Shown here in pieces: positions 2,365-61,337 of a stretch of 64,000 nucleotides of DNA. The notes under the pieces are model-generated. The model searched no databases. It was given only the letters and a program-made list of their open reading frames with translations, and was not told where the DNA came from. Source of the stretch: Candidatus Omnitrophota bacterium (GTDB lineage: Bacteria; Omnitrophota; Gorgyraeia; 2-01-FULL-45-10); NCBI GenBank assembly GCA_020057115.1, contig JAGVGJ010000010.1, positions 615 through 64,614 on the forward strand, read 5' to 3'. Both the position numbers and the translations under genes were made by a program. Position 1 is the first letter of the stretch. Every line of letters starts with the position of its first letter.

Positions 2365-3732
2365 ATGCTGATAGATACGCATTGCCATCTGGATTTCAAG
2401 GATTTTGACAACGACCGGGACGAGGTGATCGCACGCGCCAGGGATGCCGGCATTCTCAAAATAATAAATGTCGCAAGCTCCATAGAGGGGACGCGTCGCG
2501 CATCAGAGCTTGCAAAAAAATATGAGGCGGTCTATGCGACGGTCGGGATACACCCTCATGCGGCCGAGACTGTTACGGACGAAGCGATCGATGAGCTTAA
2601 GAAAATAGCTAAAGAAGACAAAGTCGTGGCTGTCGGCGAGGTCGGGCTTGACTATTACCGCAACCTCGCGCCTAAAGATAGGCAGGCGGATGCTTTTAGA
2701 AGGTTTATAAGGCTTGCCGTGGAAACCGGCAAGCCTTTGATCATCCATTCAAGAGAAGCGGATAATGACATTTTGGGCATATTGCGCGAGGAGTGCGGCA
2801 ATACGGTAAAAGGCGTAGTCCACTGCTTCGCCGGGGATGAGAAGTTCCTTGAGGATTGTCTCGGCATGGGGTTATATATATCGTTTACGGCAAATCTTAC
2901 TTTTAAGAAGGCGGATAATTTAAGGACGGTCGCGAAACGCGTTCCGATCGAGCGCCTGATGCTCGAGACGGATGCGCCGTTCCTGGCGCCGCAGGATGTT
3001 CGCGGGAAGAGGAATGAACCCGCTTACCTGACGTACCTGGTGAAGGAGTGGGAAAACATATCGGGGCTTTCCGCCGAGGATATCGCAAGGATAACGACCC
3101 ATAATGCCAACAGATTATTCGGCCTGAACATCCGCGAAGATACGAGGATCGTTTATCCGATAAGAGGATCCCTGTATCTCAACATAACCAACCGCTGCAC
3201 GAACAATTGCTATTTCTGCGTCCGCAATTCCACTGAGTTCGTAAAAGGGCACAACCTGAAGCTCGACAAGGAGCCTTCCGAGCCGGACGTCCTGGCAGCG
3301 ATGGGCGATCCTAAGAAGTATAAAGAGATAGTCTTCTGCGGGTATGGCGAGCCGACCATAAGGCTGGATGAGGTAAAGTCTATTTCACGGAAGATGAAGG
3401 CGCTGGGGCTTAAGGTGAGGCTTGTGACCAATGGCCACGGCGATCTCATAAATAAGCGTCCGATAGCCGCTGAATTGTCCGGGCTTATAGACAGGATATC
3501 GGTCAGCATGAATGCCGAAGACGCGGATAAGTACGAAAAGATATGCGAGCCGGCCTTCGGAGCTCTTTCGTACAAGGCGGTCCTGGATTTCATAAAGGAT
3601 TGCGTCAATAACAAGATCGATGTCGAGGTCACTTGTCTCGACCTTCCGGAGATCGATATGGCGAAGTGCGAATCCCTCGCGAGGTCTCTTGGGGCCAGGT
3701 TCCGCCCGAGGTCATACGGGGTGGTCGGATGA
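2365..3732 (+). CDS. TatD-family metal-dependent hydrolase fused to a C-terminal radical SAM domain (TatD-associated radical SAM type)
   Basis: N-terminus MLIDTHCHLDF plus internal HxH, HCF and ETDAPFL motifs typical of TatD DNase/hydrolase. From about aa 265, NITNRCTNNCYFCVRN (CxxxCxxC radical SAM cluster motif) and FCGYGEP resemble the small radical SAM family normally encoded next to tatD. Here both parts are in one continuous ORF. Confidence 0.8.
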   Translation: MLIDTHCHLDFKDFDNDRDEVIARARDAGILKIINVASSIEGTRRASELAKKYEAVYATVGIHPHAAETVTDEAIDELKKIAKEDKVVAVGEVGLDYYRNLAPKDRQADAFRRFIRLAVETGKPLIIHSREADNDILGILREECGNTVKGVVHCFAGDEKFLEDCLGMGLYISFTANLTFKKADNLRTVAKRVPIERLMLETDAPFLAPQDVRGKRNEPAYLTYLVKEWENISGLSAEDIARITTHNANRLFGLNIREDTRIVYPIRGSLYLNITNRCTNNCYFCVRNSTEFVKGHNLKLDKEPSEPDVLAAMGDPKKYKEIVFCGYGEPTIRLDEVKSISRKMKALGLKVRLVTNGHGDLINKRPIAAELSGLIDRISVSMNAEDADKYEKICEPAFGALSYKAVLDFIKDCVNNKIDVEVTCLDLPEIDMAKCESLARSLGARFRPRSYGVVG

Positions 3733-7181: not shown

Positions 7182-8263
7182 AACCAGACGAAAGATATAT
7201 GAGGATGGCGTTAAGCCTCGCTAAAAGGGCTGAAGGCATGACGAGTCCCAACCCTCTTGTCGGCGCCGTGATAGTAAGGGGCGGCAAGGTCGTAGGCAGC
7301 GGATACCATAAAAGGGCAGGGCTTCCGCACGCGGAGATAAACGCGATAGAGGATGCCGGCAGGAAGGCCAACGGCGCCGTTCTATACGTGACGCTTGAGC
7401 CGTGCGATCATTTCGGCAGGACGCCGCCGTGCACCGACGCCATAATAAATTCCGGGATAAAAACGGTGGTGATCGCAACGCCTGATCCGAACCCGCTCAC
7501 CGGAGGCAGGGGAATAAAGATGTTGAAACGCCACGGCATCAAAACGGTCGTAGGCATCCTTAAAGACGAGGCGAGATCCATGAATAAAGCGTTCGAAAAG
7601 CGCGTCACAAAAAATATGCCTTATGTGACAGTGAAGTCCGCGGAATCTATCGACGGAAAGATAGCTACAAGGACCGGAGATTCGAAGTGGATCACATCCG
7701 AAGATTCAAGGAGATATGTCCATAGATTACGCGCCTTGTCGGACGCCGTAATGGTAGGGGTGAATACAATTATAAAAGACGATCCACTGCTCACCAGCAG
7801 GATACAAGGCTCAAGGCAGCCTGTAAGGATAATAGTAGATTCGCACTTAAGGACTCCTTTAAATGCCAAAATATTCTCAAATATCAAACGCGCGCCTCTT
7901 ATCATTGTCACGATAGGCAAAAGTTCGAAAATCGGAAGGTATGTAGAGTTGGGCGCCGAGGTCATCATCGTGAAAGCCAAGGGCGGCATGGTGGACTTAA
8001 GGGCCCTTTTAAAAGAGCTTGCGAAGAGGGAGATAACGAGCATACTCGTAGAGGGCGGTGGGAATTTGAACGCTAAGCTCCTGGAAGAAAGCCTTGCCGA
8101 CAAAGTCCTGTTCTTCATATCGCCGAAGATAATAGGCGGGAGGGACGCCATTACGTCAGTAGAGGGGCGCGGAGCGAAGAATGTCAAAGACGCGGTAAAA
8201 TTGAAGAATATAAAACTGAAGAAGTTCAGGGACGACATCCTTATCGAAGCGGAGGTGGCATGA
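7178..8263 (+). CDS. ribD: bifunctional riboflavin biosynthesis protein RibD (pyrimidine deaminase / reductase)
   Basis: CMP/dCMP deaminase zinc motifs HAEINAI and LEPCDHFGRTPPC in the N-terminal half. C-terminal reductase domain (VEGGGNLNAKLL). Start overlaps the upstream stop (ATGA). Confidence 0.9.
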   Translation: MKPDERYMRMALSLAKRAEGMTSPNPLVGAVIVRGGKVVGSGYHKRAGLPHAEINAIEDAGRKANGAVLYVTLEPCDHFGRTPPCTDAIINSGIKTVVIATPDPNPLTGGRGIKMLKRHGIKTVVGILKDEARSMNKAFEKRVTKNMPYVTVKSAESIDGKIATRTGDSKWITSEDSRRYVHRLRALSDAVMVGVNTIIKDDPLLTSRIQGSRQPVRIIVDSHLRTPLNAKIFSNIKRAPLIIVTIGKSSKIGRYVELGAEVIIVKAKGGMVDLRALLKELAKREITSILVEGGGNLNAKLLEESLADKVLFFISPKIIGGRDAITSVEGRGAKNVKDAVKLKNIKLKKFRDDILIEAEVA

Positions 8264-8898
8264 TGTTTACCGGCCTTGTAAAAGAGCTTGGGAAAGTCTT
8301 AAATATCACCAGGTCCGGAGACATCCATAAACTTTCAATAGAAGCAAAGGCCGTTTCCAGGGACGCGAAGGCAGGAGACAGCATAGCTATTAACGGAGTA
8401 TGCCTGACAGTTACGGGGAAAAAGGGCGACACCCTGTCATTCGACGCCATGGAAGAGACTTTGCGCAGGACGGCTCTTGGGTCTTTGAAAGCGGGCGCTT
8501 TAGTCAACCTCGAAGGCGCGCTTAAAGCCGGCGATCCTGTCGGCGGCCATTTCGTCCTGGGGCACGTCGACTGCGTCGGGAAGATAACGGATGTTAAAAA
8601 GAGCGCTCAGAATGTCATGATAGAGGTGGCTATGCCTGAAAAGTTCGCCGGCCTTATCGTGGAAAAAGGGTCTATAGCCCTTGACGGCATAAGTCTTACC
8701 ATAGGTGAGGTGGCTCCGGGCATATTTAAGGTCTATATCATACCGCACACCATGAGCGAGACCACGTTGAAGGACAAGAAAGTCCGAAGCGATATCAATA
8801 TCGAGTTCGATATACTCGGCAAGTACATCCTGCGCCAGAAAGGTCTGGACAAGAAGACCATCACCGAAGAGTTCCTAAAAGAGCAGGGCTTCGTCTAA
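8260..8898 (+). CDS. ribE: riboflavin synthase alpha subunit
   Basis: MFTGLVKELGKV N-terminus and an internal duplicated lumazine-binding repeat (GDSIAINGVCLTV ... GSIALDGISLTI), characteristic of riboflavin synthase. Confidence 0.85.
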   Translation: MMFTGLVKELGKVLNITRSGDIHKLSIEAKAVSRDAKAGDSIAINGVCLTVTGKKGDTLSFDAMEETLRRTALGSLKAGALVNLEGALKAGDPVGGHFVLGHVDCVGKITDVKKSAQNVMIEVAMPEKFAGLIVEKGSIALDGISLTIGEVAPGIFKVYIIPHTMSETTLKDKKVRSDINIEFDILGKYILRQKGLDKKTITEEFLKEQGFV

Positions 8899-8940
8899 GA
8901 GCGCTGCACTCACTAAAGACGGGCCTCTACAGGTTACTCG

Positions 8941-9270
8941 CGCCCACAAGGAAGCAGGCTATCTTACGCGAACGCAAATTTTCCATAGAAAAATTTGCTC
9001 GGAATGTTACTATTTTCGTTGAAAAATAGCAACATTCAACGTCGCTTCAGATACCCTGCTTCCTTGTGGGCGTACGCACTAAACAAGAAAGCTCCGGCTA
9101 TCGCTCATTCTGCCTTTCGCAAGACGACCATCTGCTTCGGCGCTTAAGAGGATAGGGATGTCTGGAGCGACGTCGAAGAGCGCTAAATTACAACGAATTT
9201 AGCGCTCTTCCGAGCAAACTTTCCCTATGGGAAATTTGCGTTCGCGTAAGACATCCCTATCCTCTTAAGC
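8941..9270. repeat. nested long inverted repeats forming a highly structured 330-bp intergenic element. Candidate structured RNA or MITE-like repeat.
   Basis: Perfect 18-bp IR 8941-8958/9055-9072. A 26-bp IR 8966-8995/9226-9252 with one mismatch. Perfect 20-bp IR 9146-9165/9250-9270. A 15-bp hairpin 9173-9190/9199-9213. A small hairpin CTATTTTCGTTGAAAAATAG at 9009-9030. Confidence 0.55.
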
Positions 9271-9361
9271 GCTTCACCAGATAAAGGCGGAGAACATCGG
9301 AAATGATTTGAAAAGACGGCGTTGATATGCTATATTCGTACAAATAAAAAAGGGAGGTCAA

Positions 9362-9697
9362 ATGGCGAAGAGGATATTTTTCGTTGTCCTTATTTTGTTA
9401 TTGGTTGCGAGTTTTGCGGCTGACGCGTATTGCGATACGCCGATAAAGAAGATCGGAAGGGGTATCTGCAACATACTTACCTGCCCTCTTGAATTTGTAG
9501 CGCAGATAGGCCAGGTGAATAAATCAGACGGTCCCATGTCTGCCGTCACTTACGGCGTAGCCAAAGGCGTGGTGATGGTATTGGTAAGAGGCGTCGTCGG
9601 AGTCTACGAGACGGTGACGTTCCCGCTGCCTTTCCCGCCGGATTATAAACCGATATTGACAGATCCCGAATTCGTATTCGAGGACATGAGCTGGTAG
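9362..9697 (+). CDS. small secreted protein, paralog 1. Resembles the exosortase-system-associated small protein family (TIGR04073-like).
   Basis: Perfect SD AGGGAGG 6 nt upstream. N-terminal signal peptide. Conserved core KKIGRGICNILTCPLEF...GVAKGVVMVLVRGVVGVYETVTFPLP. Family assignment is from memory of the KLGRGxxNxxxxPxEI motif, not from a search. Confidence 0.6.
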   Translation: MAKRIFFVVLILLLVASFAADAYCDTPIKKIGRGICNILTCPLEFVAQIGQVNKSDGPMSAVTYGVAKGVVMVLVRGVVGVYETVTFPLPFPPDYKPILTDPEFVFEDMSW

Positions 9698-9707: not shown

Positions 9708-10046
9708 ATGTTAAAGACGATCATTTCGATGCTGGTTGTTTTATCATTGGTATTAAGCTTTGCCGCTTTGGGTCATTGCGATACGGCGATACAGAAACTC
9801 GGAAGGGGAGCGAGCAATATCATGGCCTCTCCTTACGAAATATACCTGCAGAGCTCAAGGATGCATAAGACCGAAGGCCCTGTCAAGGCCATCGCCTTGG
9901 GCATGCCGCAGGGCATAGCTATGATGCTCGTAAGAGCGGTCGTAGGCGTCTATGAAGTATCGACGTTCCTCATACCTATACCTAAAGCTTACGGCCCGGT
10001 TCTCAAGGAAGAGCCGGAAGTGATACAGGATGCCCTTAAATGGTAG
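9708..10046 (+). CDS. small secreted protein, paralog 2 (tandem duplicate of 9362-9697)
   Basis: Same length and architecture as the upstream gene (QKLGRGASNIMASPYEI ... GMPQGIAMMLVRAVVGVYEVSTFLIP). Signal peptide present. Confidence 0.6.
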   Translation: MLKTIISMLVVLSLVLSFAALGHCDTAIQKLGRGASNIMASPYEIYLQSSRMHKTEGPVKAIALGMPQGIAMMLVRAVVGVYEVSTFLIPIPKAYGPVLKEEPEVIQDALKW

Positions 10047-10145: not shown

Positions 10146-10196
10146 AATAGGGACAGCGACTATTTTTCGCTTGAAAAATAGTCGCTGTCCCTATCT
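10146..10196. repeat. perfect 21-bp palindromic hairpin (ATAGGGACAGCGACTATTTTT-CGCTTG-AAAAATAGTCGCTGTCCCTAT). Possible terminator of the tRNA and a member of a CTATTTTCG..GAAAAATAG motif family.
   Basis: Directly follows the tRNA 3' end. Shares its core motif with the hairpin at 9009-9030. Confidence 0.5.
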
Positions 10197-11261: not shown

Positions 11262-13271
<2,010 letters not shown>

Positions 13272-14564: not shown

Positions 14565-15443
14565 ATGCTTGAAGAGTTCTTGAATTATATGACCGTAGAG
14601 AAGGGGCTGAGCAAGAACACGGTCGCCTCTTACCGGACGGATCTCGTCCATTTCATCGGGCATTTCGAGAAGATAGGCGTAAAGGATATCGACAGGATAA
14701 AGCGGCAGGATATAACCGATTACATGCTGGGCTTAAAAGAGAAGGGCCTGTCGAGCAACTCCATATCGCGGGCGCTTGTTGCCATAAAGATGTTCTACAG
14801 GTTCCTCGTCCAGGAGCATTTCATAAAGGATGATATCGCCGGTATCATCGAATCGCCGAAACTCATAAGGCCGCTTCCTAACGTGATGGGCATGCAGGAC
14901 GTGGAAAGGCTTCTCGACTCCCCGGATCTTCGCGACTGGATGGGCGTGCGTGATAAGGCGGCCCTCGAACTTATGTATGCGACCGGCATGCGCGTCTCGG
15001 AACTCGTCGAGCTGACCATGGAGGGGTTGAACCTGGACGTAGGTTTTATAAAATGCAGGGGCAAGGGCGACAAAGAGCGCATAGTCCCTATCGGCAAGAA
15101 GGCCAAAGAGGCCGTGATCCGCTATATGGAAAAGGTGAGGCCTAAGCTGCTCAAGAAGAGGCAGGACCCGCATCTTTTCATATCAAGGCTGGGAAAGAAG
15201 GTCTCGAGGGTATCTTTCTGGAAGATGATAAAAAGATGCTCCAAGGCGGCGCGCATAAAGAAGGATGTAACGCCTCATACCTTGAGGCACAGTTTTGCGA
15301 CCCATCTTTTGGAGCGCGGAGCGGACTTGAGGGTGGTGCAGGAGATGCTCGGGCATTCCGACATATCCACTACCCAGATATATACCCATATAAACAAAGA
15401 GAGATTAAAGTCTATACACAAACAGTTCCATCCGCGCCCTTAA
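14565..15443 (+). CDS. xerD: tyrosine site-specific recombinase, XerD-like
   Basis: N-terminal SAM-like domain (LSKNTVASYRTDL). C-terminal catalytic region with HTLRHSFATHLL, LGHSDISTTQIYTH and the catalytic Tyr. The HSD variant of the last motif favours XerD over XerC. Confidence 0.8.
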   Translation: MLEEFLNYMTVEKGLSKNTVASYRTDLVHFIGHFEKIGVKDIDRIKRQDITDYMLGLKEKGLSSNSISRALVAIKMFYRFLVQEHFIKDDIAGIIESPKLIRPLPNVMGMQDVERLLDSPDLRDWMGVRDKAALELMYATGMRVSELVELTMEGLNLDVGFIKCRGKGDKERIVPIGKKAKEAVIRYMEKVRPKLLKKRQDPHLFISRLGKKVSRVSFWKMIKRCSKAARIKKDVTPHTLRHSFATHLLERGADLRVVQEMLGHSDISTTQIYTHINKERLKSIHKQFHPRP

Positions 15444-24473: not shown

Positions 24474-25256
24474 ATGAGCGATCTGATAAAATGCGGTAAA
24501 TGCGGAAAAGAGACGAATAAGTATTCGCCTTCTTGCGAGCATTGTTTTGCGCCTTTAAAGCGGGATGATGCAAGCCAGACGAGCGAACCTGCCGAGACGA
24601 TAGAGAGTAAGGGCAAGGCTGTGCACGAAGCGTTGGAGAGATACGCTCATCCGACTAAAAGATGCCCCTTTTGCGCCGAGGAGATACAGGCCGAAGCGAT
24701 CAAGTGCAGATATTGCGGCGAGCGCATATACGACAAAAAGGCCGCCGCATCAAAAACAGGCGTATTTCTTCGGGCGGCGCTTGCGATCATCGGGATAGCT
24801 ATCGTTAGCATGCTGGCATATGCCGGATATGCCAGCATGCTCAATAAAGGCCATGCAAAGAACGGATACGATAAGAAGGTAGACCTGCCGAGCGCCGAAT
24901 TAAAAAAGGATCCGGTTAAAGCGGATTACGTAAAAAAGTACGTCGCTCTTTCCGGCACCGGGACGATCGACGAGGTAGACCCGAAATCCGCGGCCCCGAA
25001 AAAATATGTTTATGGGACCCTGAAGAATTCCGGAGATAAGCTCGTAATAAAACTTAAAGTGGCCGTCTATTATTTGGACAAGAACGGCAATATCCTCGCC
25101 GAAGGTTCGGTGTGGCCGATCTTTGGCAGCAAATCCCAGCCCGATTCGCTTAAGGCCGGCGGTTCTAAAGATTTTCAATGCCCGATAACGGATATGAATC
25201 CGGCATGGACCGGAAGGATAAAGGTCCGCGTTTCAGACATAGAATTTTTGGAATAA
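24474..25256 (+). CDS. double zinc-ribbon membrane-anchored protein with a C-terminal DUF4352-like domain
   Basis: Two CxxC...CxxC ribbons (CGKCGKE...CEHCFAPL and CPFCAEE...CRYCGERIY), one TM helix, then a beta-rich C-terminal domain. Confidence 0.5.
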   Translation: MSDLIKCGKCGKETNKYSPSCEHCFAPLKRDDASQTSEPAETIESKGKAVHEALERYAHPTKRCPFCAEEIQAEAIKCRYCGERIYDKKAAASKTGVFLRAALAIIGIAIVSMLAYAGYASMLNKGHAKNGYDKKVDLPSAELKKDPVKADYVKKYVALSGTGTIDEVDPKSAAPKKYVYGTLKNSGDKLVIKLKVAVYYLDKNGNILAEGSVWPIFGSKSQPDSLKAGGSKDFQCPITDMNPAWTGRIKVRVSDIEFLE

Positions 25257-39243: not shown

Positions 39244-42200
39244 TTGAAGACAAATAGACAAATAAAAAAATTCCCATTATTCATCAGGATCATTGCGACT
39301 ATATTACTGGTCACTTTTTTAGTCCAGGATATAGCGTGGGCGCATCCTGACCCATTTACAAAAGATCCTTCCCGTCATGCAACACTTGCTCCGGAGCCGA
39401 TGTTTGACCATCCGGAAGACAAAGTTACGGCAATTTCAACATTACTCCAATCAAAGATAGAAAGTCACGGCGTCTTTAAGGGTAATGTATCGCTTACTGC
39501 CGTTGAACACATACTGGATCTTGAGGATATCTCCAAATGGTGTGACGAAAACAAGATCGCTATTTCCACGGAGCACACGTTCACGGGCAAACCTACGGAG
39601 ATACGCCTGGTGATGCCGCACGGCCGCGTGCTGCGTTATTATGACCCAAATATAAAGACACACGAGAATAAGGATACGGCTGCTCGCGGTACGGTAGTTC
39701 GCATTAATGCCAATTTATCTAAGCAGGCCATCGAATCAAATGATTTTTACAAGAAAAACTCGCAGGTCGGCACAACCTCAACGCATGTTGATCTTCAGGC
39801 GGCGATACGAAAAGAAAAGTCATCCGCTCACATCTCTCCGTTCCAGAAAGTCCACCCATCTCTGTACGAGCGCATATCCAACTACGGATTGATCGCCGTT
39901 TCGGCAGGGCTTATCCTTGCGTATTGGCTCATAGATACGATAGCGTATATGTATGTATTCTCAGATTCAGACGTCCTCTCCGCCCTTATGCCAAGCGACC
40001 CGTACAGGTATTTTACACGCGCGGTAACCGCATGCATGATCTTTCTTTTTGGTTCGGTTATTCAATTTTTCGTGAACAGGAACAAGAAGAGGTCCATAGC
40101 GCTGTCGGAGAGAAACCATATGTTCTTCCAGGTATTTATGGATATGGGCGTGGCTGCGCACAGGCTGGACATTTCCGGTAATATACTGGATGTAAATACC
40201 AAGTGGTGCGAGTGGATGGGGTATAAGCGCGAAGAGGTCATAGATCGACCCATATTTGATTTTATAGACCCTGAGCATAGGGGCAATGCAAGGGACCGTC
40301 TACTTGGCAGGATAAGGGGATTTACTGAGGTCGAGATACCGCAGAGGACAGGCGACAGGAGATATATAAGGAAGGATGGCACGGCGATACTTTCCGACAC
40401 ATTCCATACGATATTAAAAGACAGGTTCGGCCGTCCGATAGAGATATTGACCCAATTCAGGGACATCACGGAACAGCGCAGTATGGAAAAGGAGCTTGAG
40501 AAGAGCTTGAAGGAGCTGAAGCTTGTGAGCGATACAGATAAGCTGACAGGCGCGTATAGCAGGAACTTCTGGGACAGGCAATTCAATGCCATACTTGAGG
40601 CATTCAGCCGTACGAAGATACCGATATCCGCGATAATGTGCGATCTGGACGATTTTAAAATCGTGAATGACACGCATGGTCATGCAACCGGAGATGAAGT
40701 TTTGAAAGAATACGCCAGGGTCATGCTAGCAGACCGCAGGAAGACAGACTTTGTCATACGAGCCGGCGACAAGGGAGACGAGTTCATAATAATCCTTTTC
40801 AATACAGATGCCAAGGGCGCGTCTATAGCGGCTAATCGTATTCTTGAAAATCTAGCCACGGATCATAATGTGTTAAGTCCTGACGGAAAGCCCATATCCA
40901 TAAGGGCGAGCATGGGGGTCGCCCAGTTCCGCGAAGGCCAGACGAAGGAAGATCTTGTAAAGGCGGCGGATGAGGCCCTTTATATTGCTAAACAGTCCGG
41001 AAAGAGCAAGGTAGTAGTGACGGCGCCTTCTTCCGCGCTTAGCGAAGGGGATGCTTCGCCTGAGAGCAAGATGGCCTTCAAGCGCGTAGTTGAGAATATA
41101 AGGACAAAGCCGCGCAAATATTCCGATATCACCATAAGCGAAAAGTTTATATCCAACATGGCAGAGATAAGAAACAGGCTCCGCAAACTTGGCATCGAGG
41201 ATATCCTTGGAGACTTAAGAGATCTGCGCGTTCTGACGACAGATGCGGTGGTCTTGGGGCACGGAGATTTTTCTGTAGGTTTTTATTCAAAGGCTGAGGA
41301 CGATAAAAATAATCTTATCTCCGTGCTCGGTGAAGACGGGTTCAATAAACTCTTCCCAAGGCCTACGCTCGTCCTGCCCAGGGAGATGTTCGATGAATAC
41401 GACGAGCTTATACAGCAGGATTACATACTCCACAGGATAATATGCCATTCCAAGGGGCATCATACTTCCATGTTCATACAGCAGGCGGTCTATCCCGAGA
41501 ATTACAATTATGGGGCGTATGAAGAGGAGGCCGGCAAAAAATATATGCCTGGCTGTAAGGGCGACCCCTCCAAGCCGTTTAAAGGGCGGACCGGAGAGGC
41601 TATACAAAATATCATAAACGCCATCACAAAAGACCCTATCACCACGGTAATTATGCATGACCTGAAGAACAAGATACAGGGAGGATATGTCCTCGACCTG
41701 GTATTGAATAAATACAAAAAAGATGGTTCGGCGTTATCCGAGGACCTGCTAATGCTGAAGAAATACAGAGATATGATGGGATCTATGGGCAAGACGACGC
41801 TATCATTCTATGCAAATGGCGCCAATGAGACCGAGGCCATCACGGCGCTCAGCGATATGCTCCCAGAGCTTAAGAAGATGACGACTGCCATCAAGTTAAA
41901 GCTTCGATACGGGGCATTCGACTATGACATGGAAGATAAAGAAAAAATAGCGATAGTCATAAAGAACAGCGAAGAAGGGGTTGTCCCCGGCATCAATACA
42001 GCCATCAATATGCTCGGCCGCTCTCCGGAAGAGATCGACGTAGGGAGATTCATAGAAGATATAATTTCCAGGGCAAAATCGATCTTTATAATACCGGAAA
42101 ACACGAGAGTGGATCTGTCCATACCAAGCGAAGTAAGGCGTCTCAGCGGTATCCTTACATACAAGCTTATACTAAAGCTGACGCTTGAAGAGCTTTTAAA

Positions 42201-45200
42201 GAATGCCTCAGTGGACGGTCAAGCCAACAGGATAAAGGTCTCGGTCTCTGCAACAAGCGAGGGAGAGCTTAAGGTCATGGTGAGAGATTACGGCAAGGGC
42301 ATGTCCGAGGAGAGCTTAAAACGGCTCTTCATGCCCGGTAATGCCGCAGTCGAAGATAAGCGTTACGGCTCGGGTTACGGCCTGGCTGTCCTCAAAGAGG
42401 CCATAGATTCCGTTGGGGGGACCATAATTTACGACAACAAGGTCACCGATGGGCCCTCTTTTACATTCACGCTTCCTTTGGATGCCCCGCTGGACAAACT
42501 TAAGCGGCGTGCGCTGAAAGAGCCGCTCATGGTCGCCATGTGCGGGCGCCGCGGGTCAGGCAGGAGCACGGTCGGCCGCATGATCGCAGCCACTTTCGGT
42601 TTGCGCTATGTCAACTCCGGGTTCATATTAAGGGCGGTGCTGTATAAGCTTATTGAGGCGAAGAAGAGAGGCTCCCCGGTTGATCTGGGTGATCCTAAAG
42701 CTGTCGGCGCATTCGCGCAGGATTTCTTTGAAAAGAAGAGGATAGACTATTCAAAAGAGCCTGTCGGGATAGATGGCGTGGATAGCGCCAGTATCCTTGT
42801 GGATGGCTTAAGCCTGCGCGACAAGATAAAGATGCTTATATCGAATAAAGAATTCACAGACGGGCAGTCGAACGAGGAGTGGATGCACCGAGTGGCCGGC
42901 TATAAGACCGTCGACGAAGCCCTTGAAAATTTTATAAGGACGCTTGCCGTAGAGACAAAGGCATACGGCAAGTATAACGGCATAATAAGGATGGCTTCGG
43001 ACCCTGTCAAGAACGAGGATATTATCAATATAATGCTCGACGCCCCTACCTATATAAGGGCCAAGAGGTCCAATACCCCCATAGAAGAGATAGAGAAGCT
43101 TGATAGCGCTACCGGCAGAAAGAGCATGACCGGCAGGTATGCCAGGGTGGACATGATGATAGATACTGCGCACCTTACTGTGCGGCAGGCAGCCATACAG
43201 GCCATACGCTACATAGACGCAAGGGTGCTGTCGAAGGAGGCTGCCGATGGATTTATAAGCCAGGGCGACGCGGCATTTACAAGGATGGCTGAAAATATCG
43301 CATCCGGCAAGGTCGTGGATGCGACGCACGACCCGAGAATAGTGCTTGATATAGAGCGCCTGAAGAACCGCTTGGGTTTGCGTTCGATCGACGATCTCAT
43401 GGGAGCAGGATCGGCAGTGCGCATACTCGTGACCAATGATGTCGTGATAAACGAAAAAGATTTTGCGCTGGGGCTCTATTCCGAATCGCCTGCCGTCAAG
43501 GCGCGGCTTATCCAGGTAATGGGAGAGGAAAAATTTAAACTGGCTTTTCCCAGACCTACCCTGGTATTGACGACCGAGGTGCTTCTTAATAAAGATGAGA
43601 ATATAAGGCAGGAATATATCTATCATGAGGCGATATGCCATGCGAAAGGGCATTATGAGGCCATCCTCGCCCAACAGAAGGTATTCCCGAAAAATTATAC
43701 GGGCGACTGCGAGGAGGGAGCAAACGGCCTTAAGTATGTGCGGGGTTTTGCCGGAGTGAAGGATAAGCCGTTCAAAGGCCGGTTAGGGAGCGCTCTTACA
43801 GCCACGATCAAGATGGCTACCGATCCTATAATAAGAGAGGTGCTGCATGATCTTAACAGTAAGTTCAGTACCGCGGGCGGCTTTGCTTTATACTCCGTAT
43901 TAAAGCGGTATTCGGAGGAAGAGATCGAAGCAGACAAAAGGCTCAAATTGCTTAAAGAATATTGTGCCCTGACGCTGGAGCTCAGGAACGCGTGTATCGG
44001 TTATCTTAGCGGGGAAGCGACCATGTCGGATGTCATGGATATATTTAATGAGCACCTGAAGAGGTTCACGTCATTGACCAGCAGCATTACCGAAAGATTT
44101 AATAACAACGAATATAACGATACCGAGAGGTCCAAGAACGGCATGAAAGTGCTGGTCGAGTATAGCGGCGTATCCATAAACCTCATGAACAGGGCCATGA
44201 ACTGGATAGGCAGGTCTATGGACTCTGTGGATGTAGAAGGCTATCTTGCAAATATCATAGGATCATACAGGGCATCGTTAAAAGAGAGCGCCACGCACGG
44301 AAATAAGTATGTAGAGATAAATGACGCCAAGATATCTCCCGAAGCAAGGCGCCTGAAAGATATCTTCACCTATAAAGAAGTCTTGCGCATGACCATAGAG
44401 GAGCTCGTAAAGAATGCTTTAAAATACAGCGGTACGGATAGTATCGATATAGAGGCATCTCTCACCAAGGACGGCGATCTTGAGTTCAAGGTCATAGACC
44501 ATGGTAAAGGCATCCCTGCGGATACGCTGAAAAAATTATTCACCCCGGGTTTCACGGAAGCTAAAGATTCCAGGATAGGAACAGGCTACGGCCTCGTGTC
44601 TCTCAAAGATGCCATAGGATCGGTAGGGGGCTCGATAAATGTAGAGAGCAAGGTCGGCGAGGGGACCACCTTCATATTTACTCTGCCGGCTAACGGAGAG
44701 ATAGGCGCCCTTAACAGGCCCAAGCTCTATGACCCGATCATAGTAGCCGTGAGCGGCTTGAGAGGGTCGGGTAGGACGGTGGTGTCGCGCTGGATCGCTT
44801 CAAGGCTGGGCTTGAGATATATAAATCCGCGGTTCATGATGAGGGCCATGGTAGCGACGCTTCTCGAAGCCAGAAAGAATGGCCGCGCCATCGACCTGAA
44901 AGACGGGGATGCCGTAGCCGCATTCGCCGAAGAGTTCTTCGGCAAAAGGAGGCTCGACTATTCTGTTGAACCTGTAAAGCTGGACGGCGTCGATACTTCT
45001 GTTCCGGATGAGAAGGACGGTCTCTCGCTGCGCGACAAGATAAAGACAGAGATAGACGACGGCATTACCGATGGAGAACCGAATACCACCATACTTGACA
45101 ATATAGCGCACTATAAAGGGGTCCAGGCAGCGCTTGAGAAGTTCATAAAATCGATCGCAAGCGAAGTAAGGGCATCCGGCAAATATAACGGCGTCATCCG

Positions 45201-48200
45201 GCCCGGGACGGAACCCGTAAAAGATAATGAAGTCATAAATATAATGCTGGACGCTTCGTCCTATATAAGGGCCTCCAGGGCCAATAGGGGCATGGATTGG
45301 ATAGCGTCAAAGGACGAACTCACTGACAGGAAAAATATGGCCGACAAGCATCCGTATATTGACATCATAGATACTTCATACAGCACGGTCGAGGAGACAG
45401 GAGCGCGCGCGCTGGGTTATATAATGGGACATATCCCTATCACAGACGGTATGGTGAGAAAAGGCGACAAGGCGTTCCGCAGGATGGTAGGCAATGTCAT
45501 TGCCGGGAATTTCGCGGAGACAGGGCTCATGGTAGCGCCTGACCTCGAGAATGTCGCGAAGATAACAGGGGCCTCATGCATGGAAGAGCTGATAGGAAGC
45601 GATAAGCCGCTCCGCGTCCTTGTCACCAATGCCGTTGTCTTGAACCAGTCCGACTTTTCTTTCGGGTTCTATTCGCATGCTCCGCCCATAATGGCAAAGA
45701 TAATCTCTTTAGTGGGCGAGGATACCTTTAATAGCACATTCCCGGAGCCGACACTTATCCTATCGGCCGAGATACTCGCCAATCCCAGTCCTCAGATCCG
45801 CCAAGAACACATCCTTCACGAGATATTCTGCCATACTAAAGGCCATTCTCCGGCTGTCTTCGAAGAGCAGAGGCTCTTCCCCGGAAATTATAGTGCCGGT
45901 ACGTTCGAAGAGCGCGGCAGTAAAAAATATATAGCAGGCTACGCCTGGAATGAGGCGATGCCTTTTGACGGCGCGTTCGGGGATGCCCTACGCCAGGTGA
46001 TCGACAAGAAGCTTGCCACGACCACGACCGGAGAATTTGCCCGGCCCAAGGGGAAGGAACATACGAAGACCAGCGCCGCCTTTATGACGGCCGATCTGAT
46101 CGCGCAGGCCGAGAAACTTAAAACGACGAGCATGCAGGAGCAGGCATGTGCTCTTATATTGAAGGCCTTGAGCATCGTCGCGGAATCAGACCAGCCTGTG
46201 CCGTACGAAAACATAGCAAATATCAGGGCTTTTATCTGGGACGAAAGATCCAGCGGGCACGTGCCGGTGAATTTCGATGTCCTGTTGCCGGTCATCGATG
46301 AATATATGAATGACTGCAACCTGACGAAATTTCGCATAAAACTGAGCGCTTTGCGCAAGCACATAGAGTCGACATATACCAATATCTTGGCGATGTATAT
46401 CTATAAACAGCTGTCTCATCTATTTTTCAATTCGCTCCCGACCATCACGAGGTTTACCATATTGATATCTTCCAGGAAATACCCGAACGATCCGTCGCTT
46501 AAAGAGATGATAGAGCTCTCAAGCGAGATGGATCGTTCCATGCGTAACCTCGGCGATGAATCGAACAGGTTAAGGAGCGTCGATTCTCTTATGAATTTTC
46601 TTACGGTATCCGATGAATCACTTTCAAGACAAAGGGCGCTCCTAGATGCGTTCAGAGCCGAGCATCCGGAGCTGCTGCGTCTCGACAGCCGCCTCAGGGG
46701 CAACATAGAAGCTATAAACGCTGAGCTCGAGAAGCTCGCGAGAGCGCGGAGCTTGCTGGCGCTTACGCTCGGTAACAAGCCTTCGCTCGAAGAGATAGCG
46801 GAGAGGGTCGATCTTGTAGTCGCCAAGATGGAGACCGGCGTTAAGACGCCGCGCATCGCATGGGTGGGCGGTCTGGTGCCATATTCCAATACTCTCTCCA
46901 CGGTGAAGGAAGGCGAGCCGGTCAAGGTAAGCATGCGTGTATATATACCGGGCTTTACTCCTCAGGAGATAGACTCAAAAACAGGTATCAAGAAATTTGC
47001 CGAAGGCTTCATAAGGGCCGAGATATGGACGAATGCCATATCTGATCCGGAGGCCAGTTCGGTGGAGGCCTTCAAACCGATAGATATGCGTTTTGACGGC
47101 GTAGGAGGGCGGGAAGGGCATGATTACATATTTACAGGCTTTATCCCTGCAAAATATGCCAGCCAGATAGACAGTAATGGCAGGCCGAAAGAATTCCGTT
47201 TTACGGCCCGAGCCGCTATAAAGAATGAGCTCGGAGGTATAGAAGGGGAATGGGCATATTCCGATAATCCGTATAAGACGAATGTCAACTGGCATGGCGA
47301 CGGAAGGATCGTCGTTCTGTCCAGGGATCCGGAAGAGGACCGCGGCAATCTGGTTGGGAGGGTCTTCAGCGATACGAACGGCAAGGATCAGGTGACTCAT
47401 AAGATATCCGGAAGGATCGAGAAGGGCTTCCTCAACAACGACTACCTCGTCCTTTACGGCGAGGATGGAAAGGTCTTATACGCTAAGGATGGCAAAGAGG
47501 CGCGTGTTAAACTTGAAAGTCCGGCCGTTAAGACAGATCTTGGCTATATTGTATACATGCTTGAGCCAAATGACCATATTCACGGTTTCGCCAGCCGCGA
47601 TAAAGTATTTATGGCAGATTTCATGTTCTATGACAGGGTCCTTTCGTATCATGAGATGAAAGAGGCATACTATAGCGTCCATCCGGATGAGGTTCCTGAA
47701 GGCATAGAACCGCACACTTATTTAAGAGGTTGCGGCAAAGGCATTAGGAACACGGCCGCTTATGCGGTACGTTACGAAAACCTTGATAAAAATTTTACCG
47801 CCGGTCAGCTTAAAACATGGATGAAAAATTCTCTGGCGCCTGAGGATAGGGGCACAGATTCCGAGATGCGGCTCATCGAACATAACGCTTCCAAGGGCAA
47901 GAAGGGCATGGAGCTTCTGTATGGTGAGCAGGACAGGGTATTCGGCCCGAAAGCCAACATGAGGGCCACGGAAAAGATATCAGGGAAGATAAAGAACAGA
48001 AATGATTATAGCCTAAGCAGGGACAAGGTCGTCCTTGTGGTAGAGTTGATGAAATTAAGGCCCGAGGCATTCCCTAACAGCATCGATGCAACCGTCAAGA
48101 TGTTGGGCGAAGGTTTTGATGTATTCAAGAAATATGATTTCCAGGGGCATACGCCTGTTGATGCGGCGCATTATCATTCGGACTACAAGAAGTGGCATGG

Positions 48201-51200
48201 AGCCTTGCTAAAGCTTATAGAATCCGATCCGTCCGTCCCGGCGCATTTTGATAGCATCTCAATGTCCTCCTTGCTTGAAGCCTTGCGCGATCAATACGGT
48301 TATATCAATGCCAAACTCAATTGGGCATGGGCTATTGAGGGCATGTGGAAAGATACGCTTGACGGTATGGAAAAGTATCCCAGAGAGAGCCAGATGGCGA
48401 GGTTCAAGGGCTTGGGCATATTTAAGCGGCACGATGATTTCATGAAGGATTATGCGGGTTCATATTATATAGAGAATGACGATGCTGTTAATAAGGCTAT
48501 GAAAGCGGTGGAAGAGACGCTAGGTTTTATAAATTCACGGGTGCCGTCGATATTTGTTAAGGACGAAAAGCCTGATGGGTCTGCTCCGGTAGCCGCCATA
48601 AAGAAGAATGCTCCACTGGGAGAACGTGCTATCAATTTTATGAAGAGCGGCAGGGCCAGCGAGATCGCCCAGTTCGTAGCGCTCGCTTTCATAATCTCTA
48701 TCGCATTATCCTGGGTTCTTCCGGCTAATTGGCTCACATTGTCTATAGCTATCATAGTTCCTATTACGCTCTTCTTCTTGTTGCCATGGACATGGAAGAC
48801 ATTGCTTGTGAATGTCGCGATAAGCGTCGTACTCTGGTATTGGCTGCCCTTGCCATGGTTCGGGCTCTCTATGGCCATTCTTACGATCGCAAACGTCGCT
48901 AAACACAACATAAAATTAAAGCCCCATCTTAAGCCTGAGGCTGTCCCTGCGGAAAGATCGGTTTTAGAGGAGAAGAAAGCCGAAAAAATATTATCCGATA
49001 TAACCATAGATAGAGAAATATTGGCCCGCATCCTGAAAGCGATAGAAGTTTCCAAAGAAGGGACCGATAAGGCCGATGCCAATGATGCGTTAAAGAAGCT
49101 CGACGATGCCGATATCATAACGCAGCTATTCGATTTCGGTTCAGGGACAAAAGGGTATGAAAAACCCGTTAAAGAAACCAAGGAGAAGCTGCGGCTCGGC
49201 GTAAGAAGGGCGTTCGATGATATCAAGGGCGGTCTCAACATAGAGTACAAGGATATGATAGAGCGCCTCAAGAACTGGAAGAATGAGAATGATGAAGCTT
49301 TAGCCGGAGCTCTCCAGGACCTGTCCCAGGAAGTCATGGATTTTATTATAAATTCGAATCATGCGGCAGACAATAAAGTCGACAGGCTTGCCGTAAGAGA
49401 GCTTATAGCCGAAGAGTGCGGGATAGATGCCGCGAGGTCAGAAACTATAAGGCTAAGGATGGCGCTGGATGTGCAGAAGGATGACGTAGCTTCAAATGAG
49501 ATGATAGGATCCGCATCAGCGAATGACCATTTCTTCCTGGCCGCTCTCCAGCTCAAATTTGGGAATTACATCAAGGCAGAGGAGAGCTTCGGACGCGCAG
49601 TAGACCTTGACCCGACCAATGCCGATTACAGGCTTGCGCTCGGGCTCGTTGAACATATATTTAGAAAATGGATGGCTGCGCGGACAGCTTATAATGCTGC
49701 TTCGAACTTCTATGATATCGAGGCCGGTGTATCGAAAGCCGCAAAGGCCAAGAAGGAACTTGCGGAATTCCTGAGGGAGAAAGCGCGCGCCGAAGCGCCT
49801 CTCATTATGGAGAAGAAAACCAACGGCAACTTGATCGGGAAACTATTCATAGACAAAGCCGCTACCGTTCAGATCAAAGAGGGCGTTATAGCCAAAGAAG
49901 AGATGGGCATCCTTAAGTTCTTCGCCCCCAATGGAGATATCCTTTATACCAAGAGCGGCGTTCCGGCGGCAGTGAAACTGACCGGCCAGATAATAAAGAC
50001 AAAGTCAGGCCACCAAATAAAGATCGTAGAGGACAATGAACATATACGCGGGTTCGCAGATAAGGATAATGCTTATCTTGCAGACTCCTTCGCAAAGAAT
50101 CCCATCGCCAAATACCATGAATTACAAGAGTCACATTACGCCGCCCACCCTGAAGAACTTCCCAAAGGCGTCAATTCCCATACCTATATAAGAGGATGCG
50201 GCAATGATGCCAGAGAAGCTTTAAGGACATCAAGAAAGAAAGATCTCCAGGATATCACCGCAGACGACCTCATCAAATACTTGAAGAAGAGGCTGCCGAA
50301 AGAAAGGCATAATGAGAATGAGTTCAACCTCATCAGATATAACGGCGAGCAAGGTAGAAAAGGGCTTGACCTTATATATGGCCTGCAGGATAGGGAATTC
50401 GGAGTAGAGGCAAATGAGCTATTCAGCGATGCGCTTATTATATTAGAGAAGCCTGAGCCTGCCGCCCAAGCTGCGCCTAAGACACAGCTAAGGACTGCTG
50501 ACGAAGTATTGTTCCGCGACTATTTTGAGGACCTGTTCGAGAAAAATATAGAAATGTTCATGCTCCTGTCGGTAAGGATGATGGGTAGCGATGCCGAAAA
50601 GAAGAGCGTTTTAAAGCGCCGGAATGCGCTCGTGCAGGAGCTTCTCGCGCTGACCGATAAATACAGGTCGCAGGATTTCGCAAAAGAGGAATACAGGAAA
50701 GTAGTCACATTTGTAAATGAAAAGATATTAAGGACTGTCGAGTTGGTAGACGGTGACAATGAACCGGCTGCTGCCTGGTGCTTGTTCGGCGCCATAAATG
50801 TGATAAGCGATACGCGCCTTGAGATGCAGGCCAAATGGCTCTCGGGAATAAAAGAACGCCGCGCCAGGATCTGGCGAAACGGCGGCATACTCACATATCC
50901 GAGAGGCGGCTATCGCATATTGGAAGGCTCGAAGCGCACTGTTATCGACCGCACGGAAGCCACGTTCAGCTCCATGTGGGAGGTTATGCGCTCGCTGTTC
51001 CATCAGGTGGACGGAGAGCTTGAAGAGAAGCGGAAAGTGTCCGGCCTGATATATGAGATAGACGGTTTCATGCTGGAGCTTTTCGACAAGAACTATGAGC
51101 TTAATGACGATGAGCGCGCCGCTATGAGCAAAAAGATCGGCCTCCTGGCAGCTTCCATGGCAAAGGAGAAAGGCGAGCTGAAGTATGAAGATAAGCGTAT

Positions 51201-55870: not shown

Positions 55871-56014
55871 ATATTCGGATTATATATCATTGTCGTCGGA
55901 GGGTCAAGGATATTGCAAAATGTAGCGGTAAGATAAAAAAAAGCTAGCTGTCTTGCTATTGTAGATGTCGAGTATTATAGGTATACTTATAATTGAAAGA
56001 AGAAAGATGTTCTT

Positions 56015-56240
56015 TGCAACTCGAATACAATCGCAAACCCGAGGAAACTCGGCGACGTCCCACCAAAAATGCTGGGACCGCGCCTACGCGAAAACGCGGG
56101 CGTGGCAAAACTACAGGGCCTAACCCTCCAGCACGGAGATAATGGCAGCCAGTTGCCGTAGTAAAAGCTTACGTTAAAGCTAAATTGAGGAGTGTATCTA
56201 TTTCCAATCGATATGACGTTGGTTGGGATTTTTTTTATTT
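56015..56240 (+). ncRNA. candidate structured RNA / cis-regulatory leader (element R1) upstream of PEP-CTERM gene 1. Paralogous to 60515-60840.
   Basis: GCAAACC followed by a CGAG-GAAA-CTCG GNRA hairpin (56043-56065). Further GAAA-capped hairpins. Conserved blocks CAAAACTACAGGGCCTAACC (56116-56135) and ATGGCAGCCAGTTGCCGT (56152-56169, identical to 60749-60766). A T9 run at 56229-56240 lies about 20 nt before the RBS/ATG of the PEP-CTERM gene. Confidence 0.35.
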
Positions 56241-56261
56241 GTAAGATCCAAAGTCCAGGAG

Positions 56262-58741
56262 ATGAATATGAAAAAACTAACCATAGCGTTAATGATCCTC
56301 GCGGCGATCGGCATATTTGGATGCCTGTCGACCGCCTATGCCGAAAATAACACATGGGATGGTTCTGAATCTAATCTATGGAGTGCCCAGGCAACTGGAG
56401 CCTGGGTCATGATCCTAACCATGCCGGCTATGGCGGTGAAGTTGCCAGCCTAACATCATCTTATTCAGATCCGGTCCTTAACATGACTACCCCCGCACTC
56501 TCCGGCCTTACTATAGATTCAACGAACCTTACGGCGTCGGCAAGCGGTTTTACGCTCAACGTAGGAAGCGCCTCTTCATCCGCCAATATGATACTTAATA
56601 ACACGGCAGACACGCAAATGAATATTGGCAGTTCGGACTCTAGTTACAACTTTACCACGAAGGTATATGGCAACCTTACCGCAAATGATGACAAGATCAC
56701 CGTGTACAGCACTATAGACTTGATCACAGCTCCAAATAGTATTGAATTCAGGAACCCCGGCGGAGCGATATTTAAAAATGTAATTATGGAATTTAATGGC
56801 GGCAATACTAGTCGCATCGTTACCATGTATAACAATACCACGATAGATGGGAATCTGACCCTGCGGAATAATTTCTCAGGGAACGGAGGCATTAGTCTTA
56901 TGGGCTACGGCTCCCCGATCGTGGCAGTTATCGGTAATTTCGACATGCCATATTCAAGCGCCAACGCTGGTTTTAACAGATTCGGAGACGGCGGGCATAA
57001 TTTAAATTTTAGGTTAGGCGGTAACCTAACCGTGGGGGAGTATTATTCCGCAGCCCCTACCACCGAGATACTATTAGATGATATCACTTTCAATGGGACT
57101 GGCAACCAGGCGGTGAATATTACGCCAAACAATAGCATCGTCGGCACAAACCAGAAATCCGTATTCATCGTTAATAAAGATAGCGGCGCTGTGGCTTATG
57201 AGACAGGCAGCTATGCTCAAAAATATCTGCCCTGGTATATTAATAAAGGAGAGCTGGCCGGCACTATTGCGTCCGGCACTATAACGTCCGGAGCTATAAC
57301 TGCATATAATCATTTTGCCGCAACAACAGACGCGGTATTTAGCGGATCGTTATCGTCCAATCCGTCAACCGTAACATTAGATCCTATTTACTCAAATATA
57401 GAAGTTGATAATCCGAGCTCTACGGGGTTCACAAGGGTCGCATCGTTGCTTGGAGCAGATTATAAAGCCCCGGGCGGTGAGCATTTTAATGATCTTACGC
57501 TAATCACAGGGGCTGTTGGTTCCGGAGCTGGAGTTGGTCATGTCGCTTTTTACGGAAACGCAAGCACTAGCGATATCGATCTTTACGTAGACGGAACATT
57601 TAAGGTAGACAGGCCTGCCGGAGCCACGAATACCCTGTATGTCGATGGGTCAGCTAATAAACCGACGCTTCAGGTCTATGACGCCGTTTTTACAGGCACA
57701 AGCGGGACTTTTTCTGTAGGATCTGCATATGGCATGGACATAAATATAAGTAATGATTTTACGTTGAGTTATGCCAATGGTTCTATTAACAACACCACTT
57801 TAAAGTTTAACGGCGCTGACGAACAATTGTTTACATATACGGCGGGCACTATTCACGCTACTTCCTCGTTGGTGGTAGACAAACCGTCAGGCACGCTTAA
57901 ATTTATGAGTGATAATAAGACGAGCAATGCCTCGCTCACGGTTTCAAGCGGCACACTCGATCCTAACGGTAATACATTTACCGTCTATCAAAAAAATATC
58001 TCTATAGGAGCTGACGGCGTGATCCAGGGTAAAGGTACTATCGGTATTACGCAAGATGTTCCAAAGTCTTATACCTTCACCAATAACGGCAAGGTCATAG
58101 CCGATGGCGGCGGGGCTGACAGCACGCTAACCATCAACACTACGGGCGCGATCAAAAACACTTTTGATAATACCGGAGATTCCGGATGGTATGCTTTGAA
58201 TAAGGGCATGCTCGCGCTGCCCGGCCAGAGCATTACTACCGGATCGAATAAGACCGTCTATTGGGGTGAAGAGGCTGATGCCGATGCATTGCCTGATATG
58301 GTCAATAGCGCCAAGCTTACCTTTAACAATGTAAGTTCGGTAGGTACTTTCAGCATCAACCTTATGGCTTCGGATAGAAGCGATATCGAGGTCTCTCTGG
58401 ATAATCAAGCCTATGCGAGTTATTGGGATGTCAATTTTACCGGCGCCTTCAATTATGTTGACATGATATTTAAATATGACGATTCTATGGTTCAATCCCT
58501 TGGTATTGAGGAATCGACGCTGAAGTTCTACCACTTTACCGGTGGGGAATGGGTCGATGTCACCACACAGCTTGATACCGAAAATAATCTCCTCTATGCG
58601 TCTAATGTTACTTCGTTCAGCGATTTCAGCGCGCAAGGTAACATTACAGCCAATGTCCCCGAGCCCGCAACGATGGTGAGCTTATTGAGCGGACTGGCGA
58701 TGATAGGTTTCAGGAGAGTGCATAGATCAGGTAAGAAATAA
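56262..58741 (+). CDS. PEP-CTERM sorting-signal surface protein 1, with an apparent frameshift between signal peptide and body
   Basis: C-terminus VPEPATMVSLLSGLAMIGFRRVHRSGKK is a PEP-CTERM motif followed by a TM helix and Arg cluster. The Ser/Thr/Asn/Gly-rich body reads in one frame from 56378. A canonical signal peptide (MNMKKLTIALMILAAIGIFGCLSTAYA, SD AGGAG upstream) is encoded 56262-56350 in a different frame that terminates at 56453. Confidence 0.6.
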
Positions 58742-60445: not shown

Positions 60446-60480
60446 TATTTGTAAAATGCACAAAAGCAAGATTTTACCTC

Positions 60481-60508
60481 TTGCATAATTTTTTCTTCAG
60501 GGTATACT
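60481..60508 (+). promoter_or_regulatory. sigma70-like promoter candidate (TTGCAT - 16 nt - TATACT) for the R2 RNA-like element
   Basis: -35-like TTGCAT at 60481-60486 and -10-like TATACT at 60503-60508. No protein-coding ORF of at least 60 aa follows. Only a 41-codon ORF without SD lies at 60547. Confidence 0.3.
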
Positions 60509-60514
60509 TAAAAT

Positions 60515-60840: not shown

Positions 60841-60888
60841 AAAATAGTTTGCAACAATTTGGGGGTTTTGAGCGTCTTATATAGTAGG

Positions 60889-60917
60889 GGGTCCAGGGGC
60901 CAGGGTCAAGGGTCCAG
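60889..60917 (+). repeat. GGGTCCAGGGGCCAGGGTCAAGGGTCCAG repeat, copy 3 (left flank of the four-helix-bundle gene)
   Basis: Identical to the 14518-14546 copy. 40 nt upstream of the four-helix-bundle gene start. Confidence 0.8.
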
Positions 60918-60956
60918 GGTGAATAATCCGGAATAAAACAAAAAGAAGGGGTAGAA

Positions 60957-61334: not shown

Positions 61335-61337
61335 CCC
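61309..61337 (-). repeat. inverted, unit-shuffled copy of the GGGTCCAG/GGGCCAG/GGTCAAG repeat (right flank of the four-helix-bundle gene)
   Basis: Plus-strand reads CTGGACCCCGGACCCTGGCCCCTTGACCC. Its reverse complement is GGGTCAAGGGGCCAGGGTCCGGGGTCCAG, built from the same units as the other copies. Confidence 0.7.

Follow-up and report, generated by a model that had tools for sequence, protein, structure and literature searches.

Two inverted, branched palindromic modules inserted downstream of ribE in an Omnitrophota genome

The region between ribE and the small secreted protein genes

The 64-kb stretch of DNA analysed here, called the window, contains a gap of 463 nt between ribE (8260-8898) and the first gene for a TIGR04073-like small secreted protein (9362-9697). 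A second gene of the same kind (9708-10046) follows in tandem, 10 nt away. A palindromic block, starting at a distance of 42 nt from the ribE stop codon, covers about three quarters of the gap; an earlier examination limited to the letters of the DNA (the sequence-only reading) had the repeats filling the whole of it, which is right for most of the gap only. The next gene has its own promoter, located downstream of the insertion and conserved among relatives. The main features of the locus are the following.

8896-8898: stop codon of ribE
8899-9301: insertion of 403 nt (an A run makes the length uncertain by 1 nt), between the ribE stop and AATGATTTGAAA
8941-9282: palindromic block, reaching 9291 when a further 9-bp helix is counted
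9308-9336, + strand: promoter of the small secreted protein gene, sigma-70-like, TTGAAA-17-TATATT with TG
10147-10194, + strand: hairpin following tRNA-Pro, 22 bp perfect, terminator-like

RibE homologues place the window in the Omnitrophota, the best non-self match being 67% identical. Five syntenic loci from relatives have been read: L004 and L005, whose RibE proteins are 67% and 63% identical to that of the window; L023, the closest relative, with a small protein 79% identical; L006/L007 (GCA_028699255.1); and L008 (JGI 3300009538). The gene order NusB-PHP-RibD-RibE-small protein-tRNA-Pro-acylphosphatase-metallophosphoesterase-LigA is kept in all five. The distance from the ribE stop to the following ATG is 52-73 nt in these relatives against 463 nt in the window, and alignment identifies the short gap as the homologue of window positions 9302-9361. 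The -35 box is found 5-6 nt from the ribE stop in L004, L005 and L023, which are the three closest, 26 nt from it in L006, and immediately after it (0 nt) in L008.

The comparison of ribE-downstream regions, suggested by the sequence-only reading, gave a uniform answer, as the palindromic block is absent from all five relatives. Empty sites read TGA/AATGATTTGAAA...TATATT...GGAGG...ATG in L005 and TGA/AATCATTTGAAA... in L023, and the filled site of the window reads TAA/GAGCGC...CATCGGA/AATGATTTGAAA. AATGATTTGAAA, the right flank of the insertion, leads to the next gene's -35 box. Because the stop-to-promoter gap is short in five of five relatives, and a single gain is a simpler assumption than repeated exact losses, 8899-9301 is shown by the aligned loci to be an insertion specific to the lineage of the window. 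The GC content of the inserted DNA is 0.484, that of the window 0.498. No target-site duplication (TSD) longer than 1 nt emerged from the comparison of the L005 and L023 empty sites with the window, at most one A being doubled, and no inverted repeat is found at the ends of the 403-nt insert. A clean pair of filled and empty sites is thereby available for dating the insertion. L023 already has the tandem pair of small protein genes (462-797 and 808-1098) without the block, and the duplication of these genes is thus older than the palindromic insertion; L006 and L008 have a single copy.

Two inverted modules with a common core

The block consists of two modules, A and B, built on the same plan and laid down in opposite orientation. 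Their parts are listed here in order along the window.

8941-9072, + strand: module A, outer stem closing a three-way junction
8941-8958: outer stem of module A, left arm, 18 bp perfect with 9055-9072
8957-9056, + strand: core copy A, homologous to 9156-9256 in reverse complement
8963-8981 / 9232-9250: long-range pair, 19 bp perfect
8974-8998, + strand: small hairpin of core A, GCAAATTTT-CCATAGA-AAAATTTGC
9002-9037, + strand: inner hairpin of core A, 15 bp with one A.C mismatch
9055-9072: outer stem of module A, right arm
9073-9129: spacer separating A from B, of which the final 21 nt are part of the outermost helix region of module B
9130-9282, - strand: module B, inverted paralogue of A
9140-9162: outer stem of module B, left arm, 23 bp perfect with 9250-9272
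9156-9256, - strand: core copy B
9175-9210: inner hairpin of core B, 15 bp perfect (9175-9189 / 9196-9210), 6-nt loop
9214-9239, - strand: small hairpin of core B
9250-9272: outer stem of module B, right arm

From the outside inward, module A is made of the 18-bp stem, a 5-bp helix, a 3x3 internal loop, a 4-bp helix and the three-way junction. Module B can be extended to 9109-9291 by a 9-bp helix (9109-9117 / 9283-9291). The core motif is TCTTACGCGAACGCAAATTT...TTTGCTCGGAA...ACGTCGCTYCAGA, where TCTTACGCGAACGCAAATTT is the invariant 20-mer carried by core A.

All four inverted repeats described in the sequence-only reading have been found, with small corrections to coordinates and lengths. A perfect repeat given there as 20 bp is really 23 bp long, and a pair given as 26 bp exists but is perfect over 19 bp only, within a 40-nt match of 85% (8957-8996 / 9217-9256). 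The interlocking appearance of these repeats is accounted for by A and B being inverted copies of one sequence.

The alignment of A(+) with B(-) spans 133 columns and includes a single 1-nt indel. Within the core (columns 19-115, about 97 nt) 73 of 97 columns are identical (75%). The outer stems differ at 12 of 18 pairs, with a column identity of 33%, about that of unrelated sequence. Each of the 51 modelled pairs is formed in both copies, and 20 are changed on both sides, 6 of them in the inner hairpin. None of 500 shuffles reached this result, and slid controls gave 1-2 such pairs. As read from this alignment, the modules are shown to be inverted, diverged paralogues of one core of about 97 nt. 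Hairpins that stay perfect through about 25% divergence demonstrate that hairpin formation itself matters; either it is selected, or the arms are corrected one against the other at the DNA level.

G.U pairs number at most one among 102 pair cells, and both DNA strands consequently fold nearly equally well. Three A.C mismatches of A(+)/B(-), excluded from the modelled pairs, all become G.U on A(-)/B(+). Module A is for this reason 12.8 kcal/mol more stable as - strand RNA (-77.6 kcal/mol, against -64.8 as + strand RNA); module B folds at -91.6 kcal/mol on the + strand and -90.1 on the - strand.

The claim that the block is too regular for ordinary intergenic DNA is well founded, its regularity being far beyond chance by shuffles, sliding fold and hairpin count. 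The minimum free energy (MFE) of 8899-9300 is -184.2 kcal/mol (z -12.6) on the + strand and -196.3 kcal/mol (z -15.9) on the - strand, and on neither strand did any of 100 shuffles fold as well. When the 64-kb window was folded in sliding segments of 150 nt, the two modules ranked at the top on both strands (z -6.1 to -8.6), followed by the tRNA-Pro region including its hairpin. Perfect hairpins of at least 11 bp are four in the 64 kb, against 0-1 in shuffled sequence. The other long intergenic gaps of the window, among which 60446-61443 (about 1 kb, upstream of recA) and 55871-56377 (about 0.5 kb), hold short, ordinary hairpins only. Perfect hairpins also occur inside genes, one of 15 bp (24807-24841) in the ORF 24474-25256 (double zinc ribbon) and one of 11 bp (2709-2737) in the ORF 2365-3732 (TatD/radical SAM).

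An assembly artefact was considered and is unlikely. The JGI contig L001 (3300038438, Ga0394674_31474; 1,170 nt), identical to window 7941-9110, has an identical module A, and the inverted copies are just 75% alike. L001 stops at 9110, close to where the extended stem of module B starts (9109), and palindromes may be breaking assemblies of this organism. The idea that a core had landed in an existing terminator hairpin was discarded as well, since no hairpin occupies the site in relatives, and terminators of this lineage typically have A/T-tract flanks, which the outer stems are without.

Short direct matches connect the region of the ribE stop with the stems of module B. CGTCTAAGAGCGCT (8892-8905) resembles CGTCGAAGAGCGCT (9171-9184), the two being summarized as CGTCKAAGAGCGCT, at a score reached by 1 of 500 shuffles; AGCGCTGCAC (8900-8909) resembles AGCGCTTCAC (9268-9277), summarized as AGCGCTKCAC. 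ACKCACTAAA is similarly found at 8908-8917 and, just past module A, at 9074-9083. All three were evaluated as TSD-like repeats and rejected, because too short for significance (AGCGCT occurs 36 times in the window). These matches, of borderline significance, could be due to chance or could be a trace of the origin of the stems or of the insertion.

A sub-motif of the block recurs at the hairpin following tRNA-Pro, in agreement with the sequence-only reading: CTATTTT(N)CG(N)TTGAAAAATAG is present only at 9010-9029 and 10160-10181, with 0 occurrences expected. The similarity is limited to the apical 20-22 nt, corresponding to the motif CTATTTTCGTTGAAAAATAG of inner hairpin A; the core is not contained in the post-tRNA hairpin according to R1, a covariance model built from A and B. 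This hairpin has the makeup of an intrinsic terminator, and relatives have terminator-like hairpins with its foot motif, (A)ATAGGGACAG or AGTAGGGCAC (window 10147-10194; L008 11076-11138 and 2879-2925; L006 11053-11088). Long perfect hairpins with a common foot motif in three Omnitrophota genomes could represent a hairpin family spread through the lineage, or the form of terminator that it prefers. In L008 the intact tRNA-Pro(CGG) gene (11522-11598) is preceded, at a distance of about 200 nt, by a truncated second copy (11325-11385), which may be an old integration scar.

Transcription and folding of the block as RNA

A promoter scan detected no promoter-like site inside or beside the block on either strand, except the one of the downstream gene, so that the block would be transcribed only by read-through from ribD-ribE. 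No U-tract follows module A or module B, either on reading the sequence or in a terminator scan; the outer hairpins of A and B are flanked by TACGCAC and TTCACCAG, and do not have the form of intrinsic terminators. A 14-codon ORF in module B preceded by an SD-like AAGAGGA was dropped because A does not share it, and the remaining ORFs of 20 aa or more within the block are apparently spurious. Searched against Rfam at the gathering threshold and at E up to 10, the window yielded tRNA-Pro as sole match; within the block only sub-threshold noise resembling miRNAs and sRNAs was seen (E 3.6-5).

The sequence-only reading had raised the possibility of an RNA switch. It correctly recognized that the long-range pair 8963-8981 / 9232-9250 and the module hairpins are mutually exclusive, and a switch or attenuator based on this competition would regulate ribE or the downstream genes. 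The energetics are nevertheless adverse. The fold with the long-range helix forced has -137.6 kcal/mol against -184.2, a loss of 46.6 kcal/mol, and the probability of the long-range pair in the ensemble is about 5e-24. The competing pairing arises only from the homology of A and B as inverted copies, and module A would presumably be fully folded before B is transcribed. Riboswitches call for exclusive folds of comparable stability and for a 5' leader placed below a promoter and conserved in relatives. Here the conserved promoter 9308-9336 comes after the block and not before it, the block is missing in the five relatives, and neither an Rfam match nor an aptamer for FMN or other ligands was found. 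A switch is hence hardly credible, and a false riboswitch candidate downstream of rib genes is removed.

One or both modules might instead be selected for a role in a transcript, as a stabilizer in the ribD-ribE 3'-UTR, as a site of RNase III processing, or as a pair of sRNAs from the homologous strands (A -, B +). The maintenance of all pairs, with 20 double changes at 75% core identity, is what such selection would produce. On the A(-)/B(+) strand the three A.C mismatches turn into G.U, module A gains its 12.8 kcal/mol as RNA, and the 3x3 internal loop reads as G.A / A.G mismatches; a strand-consistent set of three mismatches is a weak hint of the RNA strand, expected in about 1 in 4 cases by chance. 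Wobble pairs are however almost absent, which is unusual for helices selected as RNA. The lack of promoter-like sites other than that of the downstream gene, of a U-tract terminator after either module and of Rfam matches also goes against this explanation, and absence in five of five relatives tells that the block is not a conserved function of the locus. A structured RNA is accordingly regarded as an unlikely explanation, deserving some weight.

Other copies, mobilizing genes and known palindromic systems

Self-BLAST (word size 7), a search for the 19-mer allowing 3 mismatches and model R1 run with filters off revealed no second copy of the core in the 64-kb window. In self-BLAST the block resembles nothing elsewhere in the window, and R1 retrieved generic hairpins that match only the outer stem of the model. 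The neighbouring sequence is therefore not the source of the inserted DNA. Omnitrophota loci of relatives, about 51 kb in all, similarly gave generic hairpins and no further copy, and the BLAST search for copies envisaged in the sequence-only reading thus had a negative outcome in both the window and the relatives. The invariant 19-mer was found once, evidently by chance, in 185,579 species-representative genomes (an intergenic site of Rikenellaceae) and once in the JGI metagenome collection (a flagellin gene); these collections evidently do not include the host genome, as the scans returned neither the 19-mer of the window itself nor L001. Phages and plasmids searched by blastn in distant mode gave no match to the block, and pattern scans of IMG/VR gave none, or matches in coding sequences such as the region of a recombinase zinc ribbon.

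Transposase, Y1_Tnp, RAYT-like and RT/RVT domains were not found by Pfam in the 38 ORFs of the window that were scanned. These are housekeeping genes only, including a Xer-like integrase (14565-15443) syntenic in relatives. Outside the scan are six large ORFs: the PHP-domain gene, ribD, ribE, ligA and the probable NusB gene, all identified by synteny with annotated relatives, and an ORF of 4964 aa. The latter is a single frame extending over 39244-54138 (+).

Module layout, with an outer stem similar to a1/a2, a short hairpin and a long variable hairpin, recalls the msr-msd organization of retron ncRNAs, and the block could be conceived as the remnant of a retron or of another ncRNA associated to a reverse transcriptase or transposase. 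Retrons have an RT gene at their side. The neighbours here are ribE and the genes for TIGR04073-like proteins, which directly flank the two inverted copies; no RT was found in the 38 scanned ORFs, where the syntenic Xer-like integrase is the only gene of mobile type, and Rfam reported no retron or group II match. This origin is very improbable.

A different possibility is that foreign or rearranged DNA was captured once by illegitimate recombination, and that its palindromes were made or kept by template switching (quasipalindrome correction, fold-back copying), no family existing. All searches, over the window, about 51 kb of relatives and collections that evidently lack the host genome, converge on a single locus. 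Neither TSDs nor terminal inverted repeats (TIRs) are present, the arms pair perfectly and show their symmetry on both strands, and module B is tied to the surroundings of the ribE stop by short direct matches. Complementary arms, with changes copied to both sides, would be explained by quasipalindrome correction and fold-back inverted duplication, but these are a mutational process rather than an element, and leave the source of 403 nt unexplained. Apart from matches of 10-14 nt, the 403 nt are unlike neighbouring sequence on both strands, and local fold-back copying cannot therefore have made the bulk of the insert. Moreover, two diverged inverted copies with unrelated outer stems require several events. 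Such a one-time, non-mobile product would be a minority explanation, to which we give a low but real chance.

The reading that we favour, though with no better than an even chance of being correct, is that 8899-9301 is a non-autonomous extragenic palindromic repeat element, similar to REPINs and MITEs, of new architecture, whose mobility we only infer. It is suggested by the insertion, by the layout as an inverted doublet with a spacer, and by hairpins kept perfect. Of the composite DNA element proposed in the sequence-only reading, the insertion and the two inverted paralogous modules are confirmed; the strict definition of a MITE does not apply, in the absence of a TSD and of conserved TIRs. 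Other data weigh against a mobile element. There is no second locus in the window or in the 51 kb of relatives, nor in the collections that evidently lack the host genome; the insertion shows no TSD above 1 nt and no inverted ends; the outer repeats differ between the copies, the opposite of TIRs recognized by a transposase; the 38 scanned ORFs include no transposase, RAYT-like or RT domain; and the modules are branched and 4-6 times the size of REPs.

Each core folds as a three-way junction with a short hairpin and a 15-bp hairpin, closed by the 4-bp and 5-bp helices and clamped by its own perfect inverted repeat of 18 or 23 bp, unrelated between the copies. Were the insertion such an element, its site, which directly follows a stop codon and precedes the next promoter, would be one where elements of this kind are tolerated. 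Hairpin formation would matter for propagation or repair as single-stranded DNA, or for the transcript. Two very stable branched hairpins lacking U-tracts would be where the RNA reading through from ribD-ribE ends or is processed, and they could block 3'-5' exonucleases or act as RNase III substrates. The hairpins would set the rib operon apart from the downstream promoter, and would neither sense a ligand nor switch conformation.

As a bolder and rather improbable extension, the modules could be the first members of an undescribed class of Omnitrophota hairpin elements, having a conserved core of about 97 nt and swappable perfect stems. The core would be recognized as single-stranded DNA or RNA, and moved or used by an enzyme of the HUH/Y1, IS110 or RT type that recognizes hairpins and is encoded elsewhere in the genome. 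The target might be specified by the variable stems, or be the template from which they are copied; the short matches between the stems of module B and the surroundings of the ribE stop hint at this. Should the core turn out to be repeated, the Omnitrophota, a phylum known almost only from metagenome-assembled genomes, would gain a new family of extragenic palindromes, with a bearing on how hairpin-recognizing mobilization or palindrome maintenance works. As a one-off the block would be an ordinary curiosity, and interest in it is modest until more copies turn up.

Among known systems, the intrinsic terminators of the lineage are comparable, as long perfect intergenic hairpins are common in relatives and found after tRNA-Pro. 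The modules differ from them in being branched and lacking flanking A/T tracts, and the relatives have no terminator at this position.

The MITE-like elements Correia/NEMIS, ERIC, RUP and bcr1 are in the same size class (100-400 bp), and the block shares with them intergenic insertion and absence from relatives. A further likeness is the folding into long, near-perfect hairpins upon co-transcription with the upstream gene, which makes for a potential RNase III substrate or mRNA stabilizer. What defines a MITE is a target-site duplication together with terminal inverted repeats that its copies have in common, and MITEs occur in a genome as multiple copies. The outer repeats of A and B are, in contrast, unrelated (33%) and are not TIRs in this sense, no TSD above 1 nt is present, and the searches described found no family members.

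REP doublets (REPINs and BIMEs, tagged by GTAG or CGTC) are similar in more respects. REP units are imperfect palindromes of 20-40 bp, tagged by GTAG or CGTC on one side, and REP dimers are made of inverted units, separated by a spacer of 20-100 bp, which are extragenic and located downstream of ORFs (PMC3733652). A(+) and B(-) fit this layout, at 57 nt from module to module and 99 nt from core to core. Like REP doublets, the block is extragenic and directly downstream of a coding region, has two inverted hairpin units with a spacer of tens of bases, and can fold as separate hairpins or as one large hairpin (PMC3733652). Partners with differing stems, as in a heterodimer, and the lack of a TSD are further likenesses. 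The modules are however branched and 132-183 nt long, and REPs are simple hairpins of 20-40 nt with stems of 8-9 bp. Module ends carry no GTAG or CGTC tag: CGTC occurs just before the inner hairpin of B (9171-9174) and reads CGTT in A, and membership of the CGTC REPs was rejected for mismatch of stem and size. REPs also come in high copy number and with an associated RAYT, a Y1 transposase; neither Y1_Tnp nor another transposase domain was encountered in the 38 scanned ORFs. In the modules the junction is the conserved part and the long stems are the variable part, an unusual architecture that is the reverse of that of MITEs and REPs.
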